DNA from: an uncultured virus (IMG/VR IMGVR_UViG_3300047673_000352)
Taxonomy: Duplodnaviria; Heunggongvirae; Uroviricota; Caudoviricetes
IMG/VR virus record: IMGVR_UViG_3300047673_000352
Length of the DNA stretch: 64,000 nt
Direction: 5' to 3' (one strand)
A program made the position numbers and the translations under genes. Under the pieces are notes generated by a model. It did not search any database. It had not been told where the DNA came from and saw only the letters and a list, made by a program, of their open reading frames with translations. This document shows positions 47,082 through 61,515 of the stretch, piece by piece; the first letter of the stretch is position 1, and each line of letters begins with the position of its first letter.

Positions 47082-47348
47082 AGCTGTCTGCCTCGTTACT
47101 ATATTGTTGCAGGTCGTTATTACCGCTCAACCTGGAAAGCGGGCCGGTCTAAATTTCTTAGATCGGATTATAGGACCGCCTGAGTGGTACAATAATACAA
47201 CTTTCCAACTATTATTTACCGCGTATTAAATAGGAGAAAGGCGTTCTTTCTGACGCTTAAACTTCCACCGCTCAGCGATATACTCAACTCGCTCGCTCAT
47301 GTGAACGGGTCCGGACATACAGCCGGTGAACAAGTGAAAGGAAGAAGT

Positions 47349-48128
47349 ATGGGCACAATATCAAGGCGCGTTCTATTAGACGGCTCTGTGCGGTTCCAAG
47401 CTAAGGTGCGCAGAAAAGGGCACAAAACCCTCAGCGCGACGTTTCGTGAAGAGTCTATGGCAAAGGCCTGGGCTGACATTCAAGAGGTCCGGTTGGATGG
47501 CTTCTCGCTCGATATCAACTTGGACACGCTAAGTAGCATCACGGTTGGAGATATCATAAAGAAGTACGCCGACGAAGTAGCGCCGAAGCACCACGGCTAC
47601 GAAAGCGAGCGCTTCACTATCCAGCGCTGGCTCAGATTGCCGTTTAGTCGCTCACCGGTCAGCGCCTTCGATCAGTCAGCGTTAGAGATGTATGCGCGCT
47701 GGCGCTCTTCTGCTGTCACAAAATCAACGCTCCGAAGAGAATTCAACATACTGTCTGCGGTATTCAGGAACGCGACTTCGATTGGCGTCCGTTGCCATGA
47801 ACTCAACTTCAGATCATTGACCGCTGATGAACTTATCGGCATCTATGTGCTTTCATTTCCGAACGGCATGAAGTACGTGGGTCAGTCGGTCAGCATATCA
47901 TCCCGCCTGTACCAGCACGAGTACGCCTTAAGGCGCAACCGCCACTACAACGCGCGCTTGCAGTCTACAGCCAATCAATTCGGAATAGACGCGATGAGTG
48001 TCGATGTGTTCCGGTGCAGTCGCGAACAGCTTAACGACGAAGAGCAAAGGATCATAGAACTCGTCGCGCCTGATCGACTTCTCAACCACGTAAACGCTCC
48101 ATGCACAAGAATAAAGGCCCAATCATGA
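47349..48128 (+). CDS. Chimeric protein: tyrosine-integrase N-terminal and core-binding domains fused to a GIY-YIG endonuclease
   Basis: FQAKVRRKG....SATF....AKAWA; TVGDII.KY..EV.P; STLRRE.NILSAVF; then GIY...YVGQS....R..QH...E...LN. Confidence 0.8.
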   Translation: MGTISRRVLLDGSVRFQAKVRRKGHKTLSATFREESMAKAWADIQEVRLDGFSLDINLDTLSSITVGDIIKKYADEVAPKHHGYESERFTIQRWLRLPFSRSPVSAFDQSALEMYARWRSSAVTKSTLRREFNILSAVFRNATSIGVRCHELNFRSLTADELIGIYVLSFPNGMKYVGQSVSISSRLYQHEYALRRNRHYNARLQSTANQFGIDAMSVDVFRCSREQLNDEEQRIIELVAPDRLLNHVNAPCTRIKAQS

Positions 48129-50030: not shown

Positions 50031-50828
50031 ATGTCGCACGGTCATCACCACAACGTATCGGACGCGGGTCACTCGCACAACATCGCTCAGTCGGTTCAAA
50101 CGGCTGTGCAAGAAACGTCGGTGGAGTTGACCGCCGAACAGAAGAAGGCGCAGGACGACGCCGCGAAGCAAGCAGCGAAAGAAGCCGCGAACGCCGCCAA
50201 GGAAGCCAAGCGCAAGGCTGCTGCCGAAGAGCGCGAAGCGAAGAAGGCAGCGAAGCTCGCAGAGCGCGAAGCCGCGAACGCGGAGAAGGAAGCAGAGCGC
50301 CAGGCGAAGGCCGCAACGCGCGAAGCAGAAAAGGCGCAGAAGGCTGCTGAACGCGCCGAAAAGCTCGCTGCCGAGAAGGAAGCGAAGAAGGCCGAACGCG
50401 AAGCCGCAAAGCTGGCGAAGAAGGCTGAAACGGACGCGGCCAAGGAAGCGAAGAAGGCCGAAACGGCAGCTGCGAAGGAAGCCGCGAAAGAAGCGCGCAA
50501 GGCTGAAGTGGCACGCCGCGCGGCCATGGTCGAAGAGCGCAAGGCGCAAACGAAGATCGACGGCGAGCGCCGCAGCAAGGCCACGCATGTCGTCTACACC
50601 GGCAACGGCATCAGCAACCCGCAGTCCACGTCGATCCGTGGCAAGGTTCTCGAACACATCCGCGAGAACTACAGCGTGGGCGACAAAATCGCCATCGAAA
50701 CGCTCGCGAAGGATTGCAAGCCGCTGCTGTACGGCGCGTCCATCCGTTCGTTCCTGTCGAAGCTGGAAGAGCGCTGCCACCTGGACTTCGTGACCGAATC
50801 GACGGACGAGCCGGCAGCAGCTGAATAA
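50031..50828 (+). CDS. Ala/Glu/Lys-rich coiled-coil protein with small globular C-terminal domain
   Basis: Low-complexity AEK repeats; TATAAT at 49968, AAGGAG RBS and its own terminator. Confidence 0.8.
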   Translation: MSHGHHHNVSDAGHSHNIAQSVQTAVQETSVELTAEQKKAQDDAAKQAAKEAANAAKEAKRKAAAEEREAKKAAKLAEREAANAEKEAERQAKAATREAEKAQKAAERAEKLAAEKEAKKAEREAAKLAKKAETDAAKEAKKAETAAAKEAAKEARKAEVARRAAMVEERKAQTKIDGERRSKATHVVYTGNGISNPQSTSIRGKVLEHIRENYSVGDKIAIETLAKDCKPLLYGASIRSFLSKLEERCHLDFVTESTDEPAAAE

Positions 50829-50910: not shown

Positions 50911-51867
50911 ATGGATAAAACCATCATCGTTGGGGCGGGACTCGCTGGCCTCATCACCGCATGCAAGATCAAGGACGCGACCATCTATGAGGCCGGAAAA
51001 CAGCTGGAGCAGCACAAGGCTCTTCTGCGCTTTCGCGATGAGTCCGTTTCTCATCTCACTGGCATTCCTTTCCGTGCTGTTACCGTCCACAAGGGAATCC
51101 ACATCGGAGCGCAAACGTATGACCGATGCACGCCCGCCTTTGCGAACGCGTATGCCCGGAAGGTCACCGGCAAGATCGCGGCTGACCGCAGCATCTGGAA
51201 TCTCGACACGGTTGTGCGTTACATTGCGCCGGAAGACTTCTACCATCAGCTGGTCACTCGCCATAGTTCGCGCATCCGGTGGGAGACTGCGATGCACGCG
51301 GATTCCATCGTGTACGGCCAGAAAGAATACAAGTTCGTCAATACCGCGCCGCTGCCTGTGATCATGAAGGCGTGCGGCTTGCACCAGGGCAGCTTGCCTG
51401 AAGCGCTTTTCGAATCCAGCAAGATCGAAGTGCTGCGCTATCGCCTTCCCGCTGGCACGGATGTGTTCCAAACGCTTTACTTCCCAGAGTCGGATATCCG
51501 CTGCTTCCGCGCGTCGATCACCAGCGACCTGCTGATTGTCGAGCGCGTCAAGGGCATCGAGTGCAACCGCTTTCCGGAGTCTGTCGAGCTATCGTACATC
51601 TGCGCGGCTTTCGGCCTGGATGCGTTCGCGGACCTGACTGAGATTGAACGCGTGGACCAGCGCTATGGTAAGATAATTGAATTGCCGCGTGATACTCGCG
51701 AAGCCATTCTGTTCGAACTGACGCACGCGTACAACGTGTTCAGCATCGGTCGGTTCGCGACGTGGCGCAATCTTTTGCTGGACGATGTGGTTAAGGATAT
51801 CGACATTGTTCAGCAACTCATGGCAGCGTCCTCGTATGGGCGCGCAAAGGTGCTGGCGCATCGGTAG
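50911..51867 (+). CDS. FAD-dependent protein, UDP-galactopyranose-mutase-like fold
   Basis: IIVGAGLAGL...IYE Rossmann motif; NTAPL; C-terminal GRFATWRNLLLDDVV. Confidence 0.7.
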   Translation: MDKTIIVGAGLAGLITACKIKDATIYEAGKQLEQHKALLRFRDESVSHLTGIPFRAVTVHKGIHIGAQTYDRCTPAFANAYARKVTGKIAADRSIWNLDTVVRYIAPEDFYHQLVTRHSSRIRWETAMHADSIVYGQKEYKFVNTAPLPVIMKACGLHQGSLPEALFESSKIEVLRYRLPAGTDVFQTLYFPESDIRCFRASITSDLLIVERVKGIECNRFPESVELSYICAAFGLDAFADLTEIERVDQRYGKIIELPRDTREAILFELTHAYNVFSIGRFATWRNLLLDDVVKDIDIVQQLMAASSYGRAKVLAHR

Positions 51868-52115: not shown

Positions 52116-52700
52116 ATGATGTTCTTTACAGAACCCGCTGTATCGCAACACCCGCTTTACATCTTCGATCTGGGCGGCACGCTGGCCTTTATCGACCATC
52201 GCCGTCACCTGGTAACTGCACCTGACGATAATAGCTGTCGCCACTGCTTCCAGGGCCATGCATACGACGATGCAAACGGATCGGCGCAATGCCCTGCTTG
52301 CAAGGGCACCGGAAAGTTCGTGCCTGACTGGGATGCCTTCTTCGAAGCCTGTGACCGTGACGCGCCCAATTGGCCCGTCATCGGCACGATGCTGCAGTTG
52401 TACAGCGTTGGTTGCGACATCCGTATCTGGAGCGGTCGCAGCGACGCTGTGAAGCAGAAGACGCTGATGTGGCTGCACGCGGCAACCCGGATTCCGCTGA
52501 TCAAGCTGGAGATGATGCTGAAGATGCGCGCGGCTGACGACTTCACGCCAGACGACCAGCTGAAGCGCAAGTGGCTCAACCTCATGGGCAAGCAGGAGCG
52601 TGCACGCCTCTCCGCTGTGTTCGATGACCGCAACAAGGTTGTCGCAATGTGGCGTGAAGCGGGCGTGCCGTGCTTTCAAGTCGCTCTAGGAGAGTTCTGA
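52116..52700 (+). CDS. HAD phosphatase (T4 PNK 3'-phosphatase-like) with inserted Zn finger
   Basis: FDLGGTL, SGR, D...K, FDDR.KVV.MWR..G..CFQV; CRHC...CPACKGTG insert. Confidence 0.8.
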   Translation: MMFFTEPAVSQHPLYIFDLGGTLAFIDHRRHLVTAPDDNSCRHCFQGHAYDDANGSAQCPACKGTGKFVPDWDAFFEACDRDAPNWPVIGTMLQLYSVGCDIRIWSGRSDAVKQKTLMWLHAATRIPLIKLEMMLKMRAADDFTPDDQLKRKWLNLMGKQERARLSAVFDDRNKVVAMWREAGVPCFQVALGEF

Positions 52701-53502: not shown

Positions 53503-54366
53503 ATGCAAGTCAAACTCATCAGCCACACGCCTGACGCGCTGAACCTTCTCATCGGCACGAAGACCACGCGCATGCGCGGCAAGTCGCCGGAAGAGATGAC
53601 CGACGCAGAGCGATACGAGCACTTCAGCTACATGCTCGACACGATCAAGTCGCCGTTTGAATTCGTTGACTACATCTTCGAGATCACCGGCGTGAGCAAG
53701 AATTTTTCGCATCAACTCGTGCGTACACGTACTGGCGCATACCAGCAGGAAACGAGTCGCGCTCTGGAAGTTACGGAAACGGTGCGGCCTGACGCGTTTG
53801 CATGGCCCGATCTTTCCGATGAAGCACCTTACGATCAATCGACGGCCAAACAATGCTCGCTCGCAAGCTTGTTTGATGACGCCGTTGCGGACGCCAACGC
53901 GCACTACCAGCAGTTGATCGCAGCTGGGGCCGCGCTCCAAGACGCTCGCGCCGTCCTTCCGTCGAATATGCAGACGGCAATCAAGGCGAAGTTCAACCTG
54001 CGTACGATGTCCGATATGGCCAAGAACCGGCTCTGCGCGCGTACGCAAGGCGAATACCAGCAGGCGTACCGGCTCATGCGCGCGGCTGTTCTCGCCGTCC
54101 ATCCGTGGGCTGATCCGTTGTTGCAAGTCGCCTGCGTTGCGACCGGCCAGTGCGCCTTCCCGCGTTGGGGCGGAAAGGTTCTGAATCCGAATGACGCTGC
54201 TGACAAGGCGGTGATCGAGAGGCGTGGTGGAGCGATCTACCAATGCCCGCATTACCGTCCGTGGATGGACCTGGCGAAGCAGAAAGAAGAGTTGCGCATT
54301 TCGTTCTGGAGTCGCGAGGAACTGGCACAAGCCAACCCGGTCGCAAAGAACGGCAAGAGCATGTAA
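53503..54366 (+). CDS. thyX: Divergent flavin-dependent thymidylate synthase homologue
   Basis: SPFEF..Y.FEI.GVS....HQLVR.R, DAR.VLP, N.R........R.C...Q.E; signature altered to RTR-x7-T. Confidence 0.8.
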   Translation: MQVKLISHTPDALNLLIGTKTTRMRGKSPEEMTDAERYEHFSYMLDTIKSPFEFVDYIFEITGVSKNFSHQLVRTRTGAYQQETSRALEVTETVRPDAFAWPDLSDEAPYDQSTAKQCSLASLFDDAVADANAHYQQLIAAGAALQDARAVLPSNMQTAIKAKFNLRTMSDMAKNRLCARTQGEYQQAYRLMRAAVLAVHPWADPLLQVACVATGQCAFPRWGGKVLNPNDAADKAVIERRGGAIYQCPHYRPWMDLAKQKEELRISFWSREELAQANPVAKNGKSM

Positions 54367-54404: not shown

Positions 54405-55151
54405 ATGAAGAAAGTTGCTGTAGTAGCCGCCCTAGCGTTTGCGTCCGTGGGAGCGCACGCTGAGTCCTGGTTCAGCTTTGAAGCTGGAGTAGGTGCGTCA
54501 TCCTACACGCGTGATGGCCCAGGCATCTACTACAGCCCTGGCTTCAAGTACAGCGCGCCGGTCAACGCTTTCGCATTCCGCGTGGGCGTCGTATCCACCG
54601 TCATCGACGCTAAGCCGCGCTCTTTCGTTCCTGGCTTGCGCATTCACGCCGACTATCTCAACTTCGGTGGCATCAAATGGTCATCCGACTCGCCGCAGGA
54701 TTCGAGTGACTTCACAGATCGCGGCATGGTCGGCGGCTACGATCCGAAAGCGAAGGCCTGCATCAACCATACGTGCGGGCAAATGTCTGACTTCGAATCG
54801 TTCGGACGTATCCAGGCGATTGCGCTGACGCTGGAGCCGTATTGGGCGCTGAAGAACGGCTGGACCGTAGGCGTCGAAGTTGGACCGGCGCTGTATCGCG
54901 ACACATGGGTTACAAGCGCAACCGTTCTCACGGACGGCTTCAAGCTTGGCCCGCCCGGAACGGTCCACCACCTGACAACGGAGCCGAAGTTGCACATGGG
55001 CACGGTCGTCGGCGCGAGCGTTTCGAAAGGCCCGTTCAGTGTCCGGTACACGTACATATTCGCGCGCCCGTCACAGACCGGTGCCCAAGATTGGCAATCG
55101 CAATCGGGTGTGACAGGGGCGCATATGCTGACCCTCAACTACACCTTCTAA
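54405..55151 (+). CDS. Outer-membrane beta-barrel protein
   Basis: Signal peptide MKKVAVVAALAFASVGAHA; alternating beta strands; terminal LTLNYTF beta-signal. Confidence 0.8.
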   Translation: MKKVAVVAALAFASVGAHAESWFSFEAGVGASSYTRDGPGIYYSPGFKYSAPVNAFAFRVGVVSTVIDAKPRSFVPGLRIHADYLNFGGIKWSSDSPQDSSDFTDRGMVGGYDPKAKACINHTCGQMSDFESFGRIQAIALTLEPYWALKNGWTVGVEVGPALYRDTWVTSATVLTDGFKLGPPGTVHHLTTEPKLHMGTVVGASVSKGPFSVRYTYIFARPSQTGAQDWQSQSGVTGAHMLTLNYTF

Positions 55152-55188: not shown

Positions 55189-56052
55189 ATGCCCCGTACC
55201 ATTAACGACAACATCGCCGTCTTCGATATCGACGGCTGCATCAGCGATGACGTGTGGCGTCGCGCCCGCATTCCGGAAGGCGCTGAGCACTCGCTTCAAT
55301 ACGAATACTATCACGCCGGTTGCAGCGATGATCCGCCCTTGGCCATCGGCTCAGAAGTGCTGCGCACGCACATCGCTCGCGGCGACTTCATCGTGTTCTG
55401 CACGGCACGTCCGATGAAGGTTTCTGGCGAGACATCGAAGTGGATCAGCGATCATTTCGGCATCTCGCCGGATGGTGACTTTGTCATCTTGATGCGTGGG
55501 GACGGCGACAACCGCAGCGCCGTCGAAGTGAAGCGTGAAATGGCAAGCTTCTTGCGCGGGTTCGAAGACCAGACCAAGCGCAAGGTCATCGCGGCGTACG
55601 ATGACCGACAAGACATCGTGGACATGTACCGCGAGAACGGATACATTGCGCAGCTGCTGGACGCGAACGGGCTGACGCCGCTGGCACCGGGCGCATCCTT
55701 TTTGCCGGAGGCAGACGCCGCGCTGCAGAAGCCGCTGAAGTTGCTTGGCGTGGCGGAGATTCTGGAAGAAGCCGCGCAGACCTTCCGCGAACGCAACGCT
55801 GTCTATCGCGACAACGCTGTGAAGGTTGGCGACTTGATGGCGGTGCTTTTCCCGCACGGCGTGACGCTTCGGACGGCTAAAGATCACCGCGCGTATCATC
55901 TGTTTGAGCTGATGATCGTCAAGCTGACGCGCTTCGTCAACAGCGATTTGCGTCACCAAGACTCGATCCGCGATCTGGCCGTGTACGCGGCGATGGTCGA
56001 GAGCCTTGTTGACCAGCACGAAATCGAAGTGCGCGACGAGTGGAGCGAATGA
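55189..56052 (+). CDS. HAD phosphatase fused to an all-alpha nucleotide-modification-associated (NTP-pyrophosphatase-like) domain
   Basis: FDIDGC, TAR, K, YDDR; C-terminal EILEEA......R...Y...K..R......H.DS..DLA.YA. Confidence 0.75.
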   Translation: MPRTINDNIAVFDIDGCISDDVWRRARIPEGAEHSLQYEYYHAGCSDDPPLAIGSEVLRTHIARGDFIVFCTARPMKVSGETSKWISDHFGISPDGDFVILMRGDGDNRSAVEVKREMASFLRGFEDQTKRKVIAAYDDRQDIVDMYRENGYIAQLLDANGLTPLAPGASFLPEADAALQKPLKLLGVAEILEEAAQTFRERNAVYRDNAVKVGDLMAVLFPHGVTLRTAKDHRAYHLFELMIVKLTRFVNSDLRHQDSIRDLAVYAAMVESLVDQHEIEVRDEWSE

Positions 56053-56233: not shown

Positions 56234-56911
56234 ATGACCAAGCACATTCTCGTAACCGGTTCGTCAACCGGCCTGGGCGCGGCAGTCTGCGTTGCACTCC
56301 GTGATGCCGGTCATTTCGTGCACGAGTACGATGTGATCAACGGCGATGACGTTCGCAATCCGTCGCGCTGGCTCAAAGACCTGCCGCAGCTGGATGCGAT
56401 CATCAACTGCGCAGGCATCAACGACAACCGCTGGTTCGAAGAGGTTCAAGAGCGCGATTTTTTCGAACTGATGGACGTGAATGCGTTTTCCTTTGTCCGG
56501 ATGACGCAGGCCGTCTTGCCGCAGCTGAAGCGTTCGCGTGGTTTTGTGATCAACATAGTGTCCAATGCTGCACACATGCCAATGACGTCGAGCCTTTCAT
56601 ACAACGCGTCGAAGGCTGCAGCGCTGATGATCACGAAGCAGATGGCGCACGAACTGACGCCGAAATACGGCATCACCGTCTTCAGCGTGTCACCGAACAA
56701 ACTGGCGGGCACCGGTATGTCGAAGGCTATCGAAGCCAACGTGTGCAAGGTGCGCGGCTGGTCGCCGGAATACGCGGCTGAGTATCAGAAGAAGGCGTTG
56801 ATGCACGGTCTGGAAACGCCGCCCGAAGCCGTGGCGGAACTCATCAGCGGTCTGTTGACGGTCGGCAACGGGCTGTATCTGTCCGGTTGTGACATTCCGT
56901 TTGGAAAATAA
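56234..56911 (+). CDS. Classical short-chain dehydrogenase/reductase
   Basis: TGSSTGLG, NCAG, catalytic Ser and YNASK. Confidence 0.9.
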   Translation: MTKHILVTGSSTGLGAAVCVALRDAGHFVHEYDVINGDDVRNPSRWLKDLPQLDAIINCAGINDNRWFEEVQERDFFELMDVNAFSFVRMTQAVLPQLKRSRGFVINIVSNAAHMPMTSSLSYNASKAAALMITKQMAHELTPKYGITVFSVSPNKLAGTGMSKAIEANVCKVRGWSPEYAAEYQKKALMHGLETPPEAVAELISGLLTVGNGLYLSGCDIPFGK

Positions 56912-58102: not shown

Positions 58103-58669
58103 ATGTTATTTTCCGTGTTTGACTGGGAAACCACCGGCCTGCCATTTCATCCGGACGCCGAACTATCCAAACAGCCGCGCGCCATCGAATTCGGTGGCAT
58201 CATTACGGACGGCGAAGAGATTCTGGACACGTTGGAGTTCATCTGCAATCCTGGCATTGCCATCGAAGCGATCATCACCGAAATCACCGGGTTGAAGAAT
58301 GAAGACCTGGAAGACAAGCCGCCCTTTGAGCATTTCATTCCGCAACTCACCGGATACTTCGCCGCGACGCGCGGACGGATCGCGCACAACCTGTCGTTCG
58401 ATAAGGGCATCTTAGCCTTCGACCTTCGACGCCTGGGAAAGACGCTGGATGAAGTCTGCTGGCGCGGCTCGAACGGCGATGCCATCGAGATTTGCACGGT
58501 CGAGCAAACCTTCATGAAGTACGGCAAACGGATGCGCCTGCAAGACCTTCATGAACTCCACTTTGGCCCGTACGTCCAGAAGCACAGAGCGCTGGATGAC
58601 GTGATCTTGCTGCACAAAATCGCCAAGGCAGAAGGCGTCTATGAAGCGTTCAAAGGAGTCGCGCGATGA
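58103..58669 (+). CDS. dnaQ: DEDDh 3'-5' exonuclease (epsilon-like)
   Basis: FDWETTG, AHN..FD, HRALDD. Confidence 0.9.
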   Translation: MLFSVFDWETTGLPFHPDAELSKQPRAIEFGGIITDGEEILDTLEFICNPGIAIEAIITEITGLKNEDLEDKPPFEHFIPQLTGYFAATRGRIAHNLSFDKGILAFDLRRLGKTLDEVCWRGSNGDAIEICTVEQTFMKYGKRMRLQDLHELHFGPYVQKHRALDDVILLHKIAKAEGVYEAFKGVAR

Positions 58670-61515
58670 GCATGCCGCAACTGAGGGTTCGCAGCGGGTA
58701 TTCGTACCGCAATGCGTATGGACGCCACCCAGAGATTGTCGAGCGTTTGAAGGAGTTGGGTTGCGAACGCGCCGCACTCGTGGATGCCGGTACGTGGGGT
58801 CACGTCCGCTTCGAGAACGCGCTGAAGAAGGCCGAACTGACGCCGATGTTCGGCATGGAGATTCCGGTGTTGACGCTGGGCGAGGACGGCGAGCCGGTAG
58901 GATTTAAGCCAGTCGCCTGGGTGCTGGCAAAGGACACGAAGAAGTTCTACAACCTCACGACGAAGAGTGTGGCAAATAAGGGGCTTACTGATGCGGAGCT
59001 TTCTGGCGCAGATGGTGTCATTCGCTTTTGCGGTGGCGCGCACACCCTCAGTCTGGGCGCATACGATTACATCGACGTCAACCCGGCTTCGTTCACCCAC
59101 GCCTATCACGCCGTCCAACTCGCGCGGCGTACCGGTAAGCCGATGGTCATCACATCTTACAACGACATGCCGCACCCGAAGCACCAGCGGTTTGCGTATG
59201 CTTGGGAAGTTCGTGACTCTGTCGGAGTGCGCCATATAGCGTCTGAGGACGAGATTTGGGAACAGGTGAAGTGGTTCATGACGCGCGACGAGTTCACGCT
59301 GGCCGTAGCCAACACGTACGCGGTCGCTGAGCAGATGGATGGGGTATCGCTCCAGAAGGCACCGCTGATCCACCTAGAAGGCGATCTGGTGGCACTAGCG
59401 CGCGAAGGGCAACGGAGCCGCCTGACGCGCGGCCATATTACCGAATGGACGGACGAATATGAAGCGCGCTTCCTCATGGAAATCGAGCAGATTCAACTCA
59501 AGAAGTTTGATTCATACTTTCTTGTGGTGTCTGATCTGGTGCGGTACGCGAAGGAGCATATGCTGGTCGGTCCCGCTCGCGGCTCGTCTGCAGGCTCGCT
59601 GGTGTGCTATCTGCTGGGCATCACCGAAGTTGACCCGATCCCGCACGACTTACTATTCCAGCGATTCATTGACATTAGTCGCGCTGACTTGCCTGACATT
59701 GACATCGACTTTACGGACACCAAACGACATCTGGTTTTTGAGTACCTTCAGGATAAGTACGGTGCCGCCAACGTCGCGAAGCTGGGCAATATTAACACAC
59801 TGCAAGCTAATAGTGTGATGGCGCAGGTCGGCAAACGCTTTGGAGTGCCTTACAGTGAAACGGCAAACGTCAAGAATGCGCTCATCGTCTACTCATCTGG
59901 TGACGCGCGTTACGGGAAGGGTCTGCAGGATACCTTTGACGGCACGGAGCCTGGCCAGGAGTTTATGCGCCGCTTTCCCGAAGCCGCGCAGTGCATGGGC
60001 GATCTTGAGATTCATCCATCTCACACCGGTGTCCACGCTGCCGGCATCCTGGTTTGTAATGACCCGGTCAGCGACTACTGCACAGTCAACGTCGAAGGTG
60101 TGGCCCAGATCGACAAGCCAGATTCCGAATACCTTAACCTGCTCAAGATCGACGCCTTGGGTCTTCGCACCCTTGGCATTATCGAAGACAGTGGTGTGGT
60201 CACCGCAGAACAACTGTTTTCGCTTAAGCTGGACGACCCGGAAGTCTTCAAGGTCATCAATGAAGACCGTGTCAGCGGCATCTTCCAGTTCGAAGGCGAT
60301 GCGGTGCGGTCGGTTACTCGCTCTGTTAATGTCGATAGGTTCTCGAAGATTGACAACTTAACGGCGTTGGCGCGGCCAGGCCCGCTTGCGTCCGGTATGG
60401 CACAGAAGTACATCGCCCGCGCCGCTGGCAAGGAGCCGGTTACATACGATGTGCCGCAGCTGGAGAAGTACCTGAAGGACACGTTTGGCGTCTTCTTGTA
60501 CCAAGAGCAGATCATGTCGGTGGTGAAGGAAATCGGCCTGTTTGACTGGGTCAAAACCTCTGCCGTCCGAAAGGCCATGTCAGGGAGAAAAGGCGAAGAG
60601 TACTTCAACAAGATGGGCGAGGACTTCGTTGCTGGCGCGACTTCCCAAGGAGTCCCGATTGACCAGGCGAAGAAAATCTGGCAAGAAATGGTTACTTTCG
60701 GGTCTTGGGGCTTCAATAAGTCTCACTCCGTTTCTTACGCTGTCGTCACATACTGGACCTGCTGGCTCAAGCGCTATCACAAACTTGAGTTTGCTGCTGC
60801 GTGCCTTCGTGCCGCGAAGGACGATGAACAGACAATCGCCATTCTCCGCGAACTCGCAAAGGAAGGGGTTTCGTACACGCCGATTGACCCTGAATTTTCC
60901 GAGATGCATTGGAAAGTAGCTGATGGACGACTCATCGGCGGAATCCAGAACGCGAAGGGCTTTGGCCCCGTCAAGGCAACTAAGTATATCCAAGCGCGCG
61001 AGAAGTGGAAAGAACGGCTCTCGTTTGGGCCGCTGACGAAGAAGGAGTGGAAGGAGTATTCCAAGCACGTCGAATCGCTCGCCAAGGCTGAGGTTATGTA
61101 TCAAGACCTCGCAGAAGCGCATACGAAGTGGGGTCACTTCTACAAGAACCCTTCGCTGGTCGGCGTAACGTCCGGCAATCCGATCATCAACATGAAGGAG
61201 TGCGGCGACCGCGACGAGTGTCTGGTCATTGCTAAGCTCACCAAAAAGATTCTCGCGGACGAGAACGAAGCAATCCGGATTAAGAAGCGTGGCGGCAAGG
61301 TTCTTAAGGGTGAAACTCAGTTCATCGACTTGATGATGGTGGACGATTCAACCGACTCGCCAATGCGGTTCCGTGTGCGTCCGGATAAGTACAAGCAGCA
61401 TGGCAAGCCTATCGCGGAAACCGCGCCGCTTGGCTCGTGGTTCCTGGTCCGCGCCTGGAAGATCAGTGGCATCGACATGTTCATTATCAAGAACGTTAAA
61501 AGGATTGACCAATGA
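58666..61515 (+). CDS. dnaE: DNA polymerase III alpha (family C)
   Basis: GP.RGS.AGSLV, PDIDID, HAAG, K.D.LGL, YQEQIM, FNKSH. Confidence 0.95.
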   Translation: MSMPQLRVRSGYSYRNAYGRHPEIVERLKELGCERAALVDAGTWGHVRFENALKKAELTPMFGMEIPVLTLGEDGEPVGFKPVAWVLAKDTKKFYNLTTKSVANKGLTDAELSGADGVIRFCGGAHTLSLGAYDYIDVNPASFTHAYHAVQLARRTGKPMVITSYNDMPHPKHQRFAYAWEVRDSVGVRHIASEDEIWEQVKWFMTRDEFTLAVANTYAVAEQMDGVSLQKAPLIHLEGDLVALAREGQRSRLTRGHITEWTDEYEARFLMEIEQIQLKKFDSYFLVVSDLVRYAKEHMLVGPARGSSAGSLVCYLLGITEVDPIPHDLLFQRFIDISRADLPDIDIDFTDTKRHLVFEYLQDKYGAANVAKLGNINTLQANSVMAQVGKRFGVPYSETANVKNALIVYSSGDARYGKGLQDTFDGTEPGQEFMRRFPEAAQCMGDLEIHPSHTGVHAAGILVCNDPVSDYCTVNVEGVAQIDKPDSEYLNLLKIDALGLRTLGIIEDSGVVTAEQLFSLKLDDPEVFKVINEDRVSGIFQFEGDAVRSVTRSVNVDRFSKIDNLTALARPGPLASGMAQKYIARAAGKEPVTYDVPQLEKYLKDTFGVFLYQEQIMSVVKEIGLFDWVKTSAVRKAMSGRKGEEYFNKMGEDFVAGATSQGVPIDQAKKIWQEMVTFGSWGFNKSHSVSYAVVTYWTCWLKRYHKLEFAAACLRAAKDDEQTIAILRELAKEGVSYTPIDPEFSEMHWKVADGRLIGGIQNAKGFGPVKATKYIQAREKWKERLSFGPLTKKEWKEYSKHVESLAKAEVMYQDLAEAHTKWGHFYKNPSLVGVTSGNPIINMKECGDRDECLVIAKLTKKILADENEAIRIKKRGGKVLKGETQFIDLMMVDDSTDSPMRFRVRPDKYKQHGKPIAETAPLGSWFLVRAWKISGIDMFIIKNVKRIDQ

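Follow-up and report, generated by a model that had tools for sequence, protein, structure and literature searches.

A ThyX variant with altered hallmark residues and a linked flavoprotein as candidates for thymidine hypermodification in PB1-like phages

Flavin-dependent thymidylate synthases (ThyX) are recognized by an RHR-x7-S signature (Myllykallio 2002, as cited in PMC2826268). As described for the Thermotoga maritima enzyme, His53 stacks on the folate pteridine and also on the reduced isoalloxazine and is hydrogen-bonded by Tyr91 and Asn85, and the flavin C4=O is bonded by Ser88; for the loss of water from the flavin carbinolamine, Tyr91 has been proposed as general acid, and a Tyr91 mutant oxidizes its flavin 1000-fold more slowly (PMC11940539). 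According to a second report, ThyX can draw carbon from free formaldehyde via an N5-carbinolamine flavin, and Tyr91 and Ser88 are termed critical (PMC8316439). Here, we describe a ThyX variant with changes at these positions, encoded in a 64,000-nucleotide stretch of DNA from an uncultured virus (IMG/VR record IMGVR_UViG_3300047673_000352), referred to in full as the window. An earlier reading of the sequence, hereafter the original prediction, had flagged the gene as a ThyX homologue missing hallmark residues. The window covers the greater part of the genome of a PB1-like myophage, with structural genes that match families of Pbunavirus E217, and its source is a PB1-like Burkholderia relative of Pbunavirus F8 and 14-1.

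Known thymidine-hypermodifying phages are reported to start with a dUMP hydroxymethylase of the thymidylate synthase family, and their virions are described as free of 5-hydroxymethyldeoxyuridine (5-hmdU), which is turned, depending on sequence context, into either thymine or the hypermodified base (PMC8989533). Pbunaviruses rank among the most frequently used phages in therapy against Pseudomonas aeruginosa, and hypermodification of their DNA was found only recently, with no gene assigned. In that work, a 2025 preprint by Yee et al. (PMC12191111; bioRxiv 10.1101/2025.03.31.646159), virion DNA of F8 and 14-1 is reported to contain hypermodified thymidine in the TG context at about one quarter of T, as nucleosides of 362 U ('erythrose/threose sugar alcohol derivative') and 390 U ('circularized aldopentose derivative'). 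The text of the preprint leaves the genes unassigned and says that Pbunavirus lacks previously implicated hypermodification genes; the words 'ThyX' and 'thymidylate' occur in it 0 times. The ThyX variant and an adjacent flavoprotein constitute a concrete candidate pair for this modification. We tentatively favour, with confidence somewhat short of even, a reading in which the variant catalyses the nucleotide-level entry step of thymidine hypermodification and is not a plain dTMP synthase; this estimate takes a hydroxymethyl product and a changed carbon donor together.

Active-site residues of the ThyX variant and its clade

The open reading frame (ORF) was correctly delimited by the original prediction: it runs from the ATG at 53503 to the stop at 54366 on the + strand, encodes 287 aa and shares its start Met with homologues. 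The features relevant to its active site are as follows, with the supporting analysis in brackets.

53503..54366, +, ThyX-fold flavoenzyme of the 'RTR' clade, 287 aa (Pfam Thy1, phrog_85, AlphaFold2 (AF2), Foldseek)
53644..53661, +, IKSPFE (I48-E53), then F54 (alignment and clade census)
53722..53763, +, variant signature RTRTGAYQQETSRA, R74-A87 (alignment and clade census)
54034..54246, +, four-Cys set C178, C211, C217 and C248 (co-occurrence over clade loci)

Pfam Thy1 (PF02511) matched residues 4-202 across its entire profile (1-191 of 191), scoring 99 bits where the cut-off is 24.8, and phrog_85 matched at 3e-38. The AF2 model (predicted local distance difference test score, pLDDT, 87.5) superposed on the ThyX structures of T. 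maritima, PBCV-1, Mycobacterium tuberculosis and Thermus thermophilus, and the best Foldseek matches of this model were the T. maritima and PBCV-1 enzymes (E ~4e-10, TM 0.73-0.79 by target, 18-22% identity). The score against the NCBIfam thyX equivalog TIGR02170, at 87.5 bits, fell marginally below the trusted cut-off of 87.9, and in place of RHR-x7-S the variant reads RTR-x7-T. The caution in the original prediction that a plain thymidylate synthase label may be wrong is borne out by this score and by the failed signature.

Subsequently, individual residues were assigned by alignment to the T. maritima chain, whose chain numbering is native + 12. As had been proposed, RTRTGAYQQETSRA stands in place of RHR-x7-S-x-RY, with R74, T84, R86 and A87 aligned within the M. 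tuberculosis RHRHFSYSQLSQRY and T. maritima RHRIASYNELSGRY signatures. IKSPFE replaces H-x-S-x-x-E, I48-E53 pairing with T. maritima H53-E-T-P-F-E58, so that His53, whose contact with the folate the original prediction had rightly stated, becomes Ile. The complete set of changes relative to T. maritima comprises H51 to D46, H53 to I48, H59 to F54, H79 to T75, N85 to Q81, S88 to T84, G89 to S85 and Y91 to A87, and T. maritima E144 corresponds to Q146. The His53-Tyr91-Asn85 network and Ser88 are therefore not kept (I48, A87, Q81 and T84 in the variant). Kept positions are T55 (S50), E58 (E53), Q75 (Q71), R78 (R74), R80 (R76), R90 (R86), R147 (R149), N163 (N165), R165 (R167), R174 (R176) and Q180 (Q182). 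The AR.VLP motif is retained as 'DARAVLP' at 147-153. Of the N.R...R motif that had also been listed as retained, N165-x-R167 stands, but the next conserved Arg, R176 (T. maritima R174), lies nine residues on, not four. The predicted FAD- and dUMP-binding residues (Q71, R74, R76, R86, R149, N165, R167, R176 and Q182) are all present, in line with the earlier suggestion that flavin and nucleotide binding are preserved.

A column census of 57 clade rows against 18 canonical phage and reference ThyX rows revealed that these changes are systematic. The position of His53 is Ile and that of His59 is Phe in 57/57 clade rows, and both are His in 18/18 canonical rows. Tyr91, present in 18/18 canonical rows, is never Tyr in the clade (Val 32, Ala 11, Thr 11, Ile 1 and Gly 1), and the His79 position, His in 18/18 canonical rows, is Thr in 50, Ser in 3, His in 3 and Asn in 1. 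The position of Ser88 (Ser in 18/18 canonical rows) is the most permissive, with Thr in 24, Ser in 23 and Ala in 10. Conversely, Q75, R78, R147, R165 and R174 are conserved in 57/57 clade rows and R80, R90 and Q180 in 56/57, and the dUMP-binding arginines remain invariant across clade sequences of just 26-30% identity. Because the replacement Ile and Phe are themselves invariant, and the dUMP-binding arginines are invariant despite the low identity, the motif change points to selection for an altered site rather than to chance or decay.

The same evidence bears on whether the protein is a catalytically dead ThyX relic retained as a structural or regulatory subunit. Such a relic could explain why four residues fixed in canonical ThyX have been lost, but it is difficult to reconcile with the fixed replacements (Ile 57/57, Phe 57/57), with substrate-binding arginines that are invariant at 26-30% identity, with the 1439 cluster representatives found at E <=0.001 and with the inteins inserted in the conserved RAF|THQLVR motif of two homologues; we regard it as highly improbable. 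These inteins were found in the clade homologues P0062 and P0064, five to six residues before R-x-R. When 28 long homologues were scanned for a second domain, only the two inteins and a weak match to Pam3_gp59 accompanied Thy1; fusions to a dUTPase or a deaminase were not found.

The change of His59 to Phe and the four-Cys set are further differences that the original prediction did not mention. C178 lies two residues past the catalytic R176, and C211, C217 and C248 lie in the C-terminal extension of 85 residues, so that the set connects this extension with the helix that follows R176. Across the clade loci, the four Cys are present together in 91/189, absent together in 97/189 and reduced to one in 1/189, and they are invariant or near-invariant in the close subclade. 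This pattern of co-occurrence suggests a probable metal site (Zn or Fe-S) near R176 in about half of the clade, including this gene.

The closest named relative is encoded by Burkholderia phage vB_BglM_WTB (72.9% identity), followed by ~290 Pbunavirus records at ~57% and by Erwinia and Escherichia coli (Wifcevirus) phages at ~55%. In total, 483 records matched, of which 355 covered >=80% of the query. Of the 1439 representatives from an exhaustive profile-free search, 292 matched at E <=1e-10, and the canonical motif was absent from nearly all of the best 150. The best 120 relatives in a collection of 5.8 billion proteins were all located on contigs of at most ~75 kb, which is consistent with a virus-only distribution of the clade. 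Four queries from the clade, run against viral contigs, supplied the clade loci (80, 78 new, 23 and 8, respectively), and 30 loci retrieved via canonical phage ThyX served as a control. For the phylogeny, a quick IQ-TREE search was run on 89 rows: the window, 17 representatives and a sample of these five locus sets (one locus in 4, in 4 and in 3 for the first three, the whole of the fourth and one in 2 of the control), leaving out domain pieces of <150 aa. A branch with SH-aLRT 88 (not starred) separated the clade-locus rows (61 rows, with 4 representatives) from the canonical ThyX rows (27). A long 'RQR' type (P0127) probably lies outside this clade, since a scan of viral contigs yielded no relatives of it.

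In the literature searched, supplements excluded, the clade and its motif are not described. A 2010 ThyX phylogeny is reported to have dropped sequences deviating from RHRX7S by >2 dissimilar residues (PMC2826268), a filter that may be the reason the clade escaped notice. The gene is labelled plain ThyX in PMC13506937, and likewise in database records.

A linked flavoprotein and the gene complement of its carriers

Upstream of the ThyX variant lies a gene for a second putative flavoenzyme, hereafter the partner.

50911..51867, +, partner flavoprotein, 318 aa, GxGxxG, phrog_4828 at 2e-105 (AF2 and fold search)

To quantify linkage, we searched with a hidden Markov model of the 318-aa protein the clade loci that have >=3 kb upstream of ThyX. 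The partner was detected in 146/148 of them (65/65, 57/58, 18/19 and 6/6 by scan) and in 0/30 canonical phage ThyX control loci, 28 of which have >=3 kb upstream. Together with the tree split (SH-aLRT 88), this distribution answers the phylogenetic check proposed in the original prediction: the variants form a distinct clade tied to the flavoprotein.

The partner has no Pfam family at E <=0.01 and no NCBIfam family, and the sole match of its profile among PDB sequences was the GxGxxG stretch. Its AF2 model (pLDDT 87.8) was more informative. In the VIA comparison, the model was best matched by the UDP-galactopyranose mutase (UGM) of Trypanosoma cruzi (4dsg; Z 21.6, rmsd 3.7 A, 310/318 residues aligned), and the top 17 entries were all UGM (Z 20.3-21.6), compared with 18.6 for protoporphyrinogen oxidase (PPO), 16.6-17.2 for bacterial UGMs and ~17 for monoamine oxidase. 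By predicted fold only, we assign the partner to the UGM/PPO/amine-oxidase flavoprotein superfamily, nearest to eukaryote-type UGM. It also contains 11 invariant Arg/Lys.

F8 and 14-1 both carry the ThyX variant, the flavoprotein and a HAD phosphatase fused to a DUF6378-like domain (HAD-DUF6378; 55189..56052 in the window) beside the DnaE-type polymerase III (Pol III) alpha gene. The module also occurs in Wifcevirus (locus L030), and Pol III alpha adjoins it in most clade loci.

We next asked what other enzymes these phages encode, searching the records of 45 relatives, 40 of them >=90% complete. Thy1 was matched exactly once per record in 45/45; the ThyA family, TET/JBP above cut-off, the thymidylate kinase family (PF02223, the only kinase family searched) and dCMP deaminase (PF00383) were each found in 0/45. 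Likewise, Pfam scans of 77 ORFs of the window detected no ThyA, ribonucleotide reductase, deaminase or dUTPase.

The TG specificity and the invariant Arg/Lys of the partner raise the question of whether the modification might begin on DNA. In such a scheme, the ThyX variant, with or without the flavoprotein, would flip T or U out of a TG context and run the last ThyX step in reverse or forward, the exocyclic methylene being trapped by a sugar hydroxyl or water. A TG-specific modification, as reported for F8 and 14-1 (PMC12191111), does require at least one DNA-reading enzyme; replacement of Tyr91 by a small residue is predicted to open the active-site loop, the invariant Arg/Lys of the partner could contribute, and the alignment to UGM covers the whole phage protein (model 1-318), UGM chains being 80-190 residues longer. 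Nevertheless, the three-arginine cage for a free 5′-phosphate monoester is intact (R74, R86 and R149), the ThyX active site is buried between tetramer subunits, Pfam searches found no DNA-binding domain, and the scheme is without precedent. We therefore consider a DNA-level enzyme unlikely.

Possible product and role in thymidine hypermodification

Given the kept and changed residues, the best reading of the ThyX variant is a functional ThyX-fold flavoenzyme, predicted to bind FAD and to bind and activate dUMP at C5. We place it at the entry step because C5-functionalized thymine occurs in at least two phages of this group and no other enzyme that adds carbon to C5 or oxidizes it was found among the relatives. 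It is a leading candidate for starting the sugar-bearing thymine of related phages. The analysis establishes the fold, the residue pattern, the clade, the linkage and the lack of any further thymidylate synthase, TET or JBP gene; the following route, including its product, the role of the partner and all steps on DNA, is inferred. As in ThyX, N5 of the reduced FAD would carry the carbon unit to C5 of dUMP. The final hydride transfer from flavin to methylene would be disfavoured (compare the Tyr91 mutant, with 1000-fold slower flavin oxidation), so that the product would be 5-hydroxymethyl-dUMP. The phage DnaE-type polymerase would then incorporate the derived nucleotide, and DNA-level enzymes would, depending on the surrounding sequence, either turn the incorporated base into sugar-bearing thymine or restore thymine. 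The ThyX variant would act jointly with the UGM-like flavoprotein and the HAD-DUF6378 protein. We had initially counted TG specificity as an objection to a nucleotide-level route; this was withdrawn, since known phages are reported to convert incorporated 5-hmdU in a context-specific manner (PMC8989533).

Within this reading, a hydroxymethyl product, that is, the same donor with a changed fate, is favoured about twice as strongly as a changed donor or a bulkier C5 adduct derived from an aldehyde or a sugar. The original prediction had concluded from the lost residues that the carbon donor has changed. That conclusion does not follow, as a changed fate of the intermediate (e.g. hydroxymethylation) or a changed electron supply explains loss of the folate-gating His53-Tyr91-Asn85 network equally well. 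By our arithmetic, hmdU (258) plus a tetritol (122) minus 18 gives 362, and hmdU plus a pentose (150) minus 18 gives 390, values that match O-linked hmU derivatives as the authors describe them. We rejected the use of 362 and 390 U as proof of C-C-linked pentose or hexose adducts, given that O-linked hmU derivatives are isobaric with them. By the same token, a sugar or aldehyde donor would also fit, since the C-linked products of ThyX-type reductive alkylation by a pentose or an oxidized hexose would have these masses too.

In UGM, the N5 of the reduced flavin acts as a covalent carrier. Extending this to the partner, the ThyX variant and the UGM-like flavoprotein, both as N5 carriers, may form a two-flavoenzyme route that puts a hydroxymethyl or sugar-derived chain on C5 of dUMP, is the origin of the Pbunavirus TG sugar-thymine and is shared by the hundreds of phage lineages in which this module accompanies a DnaE-type polymerase. 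We hold this wider proposal with less confidence than the entry role itself, as a possibility worth stating; if true, the variant would be the first ThyX-family nucleotide-hypermodification enzyme.

Several observations weigh against assigning the variant to hypermodification. The link between gene and modification comes from co-occurrence and sequence, and the modification is reported for two Pbunaviruses only, this Burkholderia phage not among them; three quarters of the thymines of F8 and 14-1 are described as ordinary T (PMC12191111). Retention of all residues that would bind and activate dUMP makes dTMP synthesis chemically feasible, and the Ile at the His53 position could pack on the pterin. 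The classical 5-hmdU helpers are absent (kinase PF02223 0/45, dCMP deaminase 0/45), and 5-hmdUMP would consequently depend on host kinases and further DNA-level enzymes. Being isobaric, O-linked (hmU-derived) and C-linked structures are not told apart by the masses. The likeness of the partner to UGM is at the fold level, with 14-16% identity and a lead of just ~3 Z over oxidases from its superfamily, and the tree was obtained by a quick search of subsampled rows, with SH-aLRT 88% on its key branch.

Much of this evidence equally suits an ordinary dTMP synthase with a rebuilt folate/NADPH face, which would methylate dUMP from methylenetetrahydrofolate or formaldehyde with reduced FAD. The partner would then be a dedicated reductase that takes over the NADPH half-reaction in which His53, His59 and His79 no longer serve, or would have an unrelated job such as oxidizing thymine in DNA; that eukaryote-type UGMs, its closest folds, themselves bind NAD(P)H (entries 5vwt and 5vwu) accords with the former. 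The full Thy1 domain and ThyX fold, the conserved dUMP-phosphate-binding and uracil-polarizing residues, the status of the gene as sole thymidylate synthase homologue in 45/45 relatives, the lack of a phage thymidylate kinase family or dCMP deaminase (0/45 each) for a non-T nucleotide route, the reportedly mostly canonical T of F8 and 14-1 DNA (PMC12191111) and the ThyX label in records and papers are all in keeping with such an enzyme. Yet Tyr91 and Ser88 are reported to be critical, and in the clade Tyr is absent from 57/57 rows and Ser88 is replaced by Ala in 10/57; canonical phage ThyX works without such a partner (0/30 loci); the score lies below the NCBIfam thyX equivalog cut-off; and the functionalized C5 carbon of Pbunavirus DNA would be left without a candidate enzyme, there being no TET/JBP and no ThyA-type hydroxymethylase. 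On balance, we consider an ordinary synthase a serious contender, only slightly less probable than the entry role.

Collectively, we continue to favour the ThyX variant as an entry enzyme of hypermodification. If its product is not plain dTMP, flavin-dependent C5 chemistry would extend past methylation, the 'thymidylate synthase' label on the records of the gene would be corrected, and modified phage genomes could be predicted from a sequence marker that combines Ile at His53, Phe at His59 and loss of Tyr91 with a neighbouring UGM-like gene. If it is a plain synthase, His53, His79 and Tyr91 would be dispensable, which is relevant to the design of ThyX inhibitors.

The surrounding genes and comparison with known systems

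The ThyX variant and its partner belong to a replication block with the order Dda helicase, phrog_4765 protein, flavoprotein, HAD phosphatase, ThyX, HAD-DUF6378, short-chain dehydrogenase/reductase (SDR), DnaQ-like exonuclease, DnaE-type Pol III alpha and SNF2 helicase. The same gene order was observed in WTB, Pbunavirus PS44, Xanthomonas XcP1 and also one 40 kb Vibrio podophage. The neighbouring features in the window are listed below.

50031..50828, +, phrog_4765 protein, function unassigned, upstream of the flavoprotein (PHROG match)
52116..52700, +, HAD phosphatase, PNKP phosphatase-type (PF25109 at 2e-22, phrog_415)
54405..55151, +, 248-aa ORF with signal-peptide-like N-terminus MKKVAVVAALAFASVGAHA, between ThyX and HAD-DUF6378
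55189..56052, +, HAD phosphatase fused to a DUF6378-like C-terminal domain (phrog_4889)
56234..56911, +, short-chain dehydrogenase/reductase, FabG-like (PF00106 at 1e-33, phrog_3142)
58103..58669, +, DnaQ-like 3′-5′ exonuclease (block 58103..61515; Pfam, PHROGs)
58666..61515, +, DnaE-type Pol III alpha (same block)

The DUF6378-like domain occurs in 174/193 loci searched, 4 of the 193 being annotated phage records, and has the invariant residues R23, Y27, K66, R69, H77, D79, S80 and D83. Its Pfam DUF6378 match is weak, its Atlas neighbours are viral unknowns, and its profile found nothing significant among PDB sequences, the best being a POU domain at E 0.06; a reading of the domain as an NTP pyrophosphatase was unsupported by the Pfam, Atlas and PDB-profile searches. 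The ThyX gene is flanked by two separate PNKP-type HAD phosphatases (52116..52700 and 55189..56052, +), of which Pbunavirus has the second, fused one only. The phrog_4765 protein is confined to the PB1-like subgroup, and an Atlas search with it gave no usable match. The SDR gene is present in many relatives and not in Pbunavirus. The 248-aa ORF has no family in Pfam, PHROGs or NCBIfam, and among 84 loci searched its only homologue was in L005, a sparse occurrence that suggests an accessory insertion into the operon.

Between 14-1 (L224) and F8 (L225), ThyX is 93.8% and the flavoprotein 97.3% identical, with neighbours of the divergent ORFs at ~96-99% and the block as a whole otherwise at ~94-99%. 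Lower identity was observed for HAD-DUF6378 (ORF57; 80.8%, with a differing acidic repeat insert), ORF70 (56.9%) and the small ORFs 58, 60 and 61 (~78-82%). These divergent ORFs are candidate determinants of the 28 U adduct difference or of END-inhibitor status, and may offer a lead to the tailoring step.

Two further features of the window were noted. Directly upstream of the Dda-like helicase, an ORF at 47301..48128 (+) has an integrase-like N-terminal part and a weakly GIY-YIG/homing-endonuclease-like C-terminal part. The portal protein (PF06381; 21976..24339, -) carries a C-terminal inorganic-pyrophosphatase-like domain (PF18823 InPase, residues 652-777, E 3e-45).

Among known systems, canonical ThyX, also termed FDTS (TM0449, M. 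tuberculosis ThyX and PBCV-1 A674R; PF02511), shares with the variant its fold, its domain and the predicted FAD/dUMP residues; the variant differs by five hallmark changes, the C-terminal extension with four Cys, the near-obligate partner and a score below the thyX equivalog cut-off. PolB (PDB 4p5b), a ThyX-like C5-methylase of UMP/dUMP in polyoxin biosynthesis and a match to the model at E 2e-9, provides an example of a ThyX fold diverted from DNA-precursor synthesis. It is bacterial, whereas the variant is encoded on a phage, and PolB is not known to have a flavoprotein partner. UGM, the best structural match to the partner, is alike with ThyX in using the N5 of reduced flavin as covalent carrier, and the title of entry 5hhf names a covalent FAD-galactopyranose. 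The ThyA-family dUMP hydroxymethylases of SPO1, M6, ViI and PhiW-14 have the role proposed for the variant and an unrelated fold (ThyA, not ThyX); these phages are reported also to encode dNMP kinase, dCMP deaminase, 5-HMUDK and aGPT-Pplase (PMC8989533), the first two of which were found in 0/45 of the relatives studied here. Finally, F8 and 14-1 carry the same module as the source phage, with a ThyX 57% identical to that of the window, and it is for the DNA of these two alone that the TG modification is reported.

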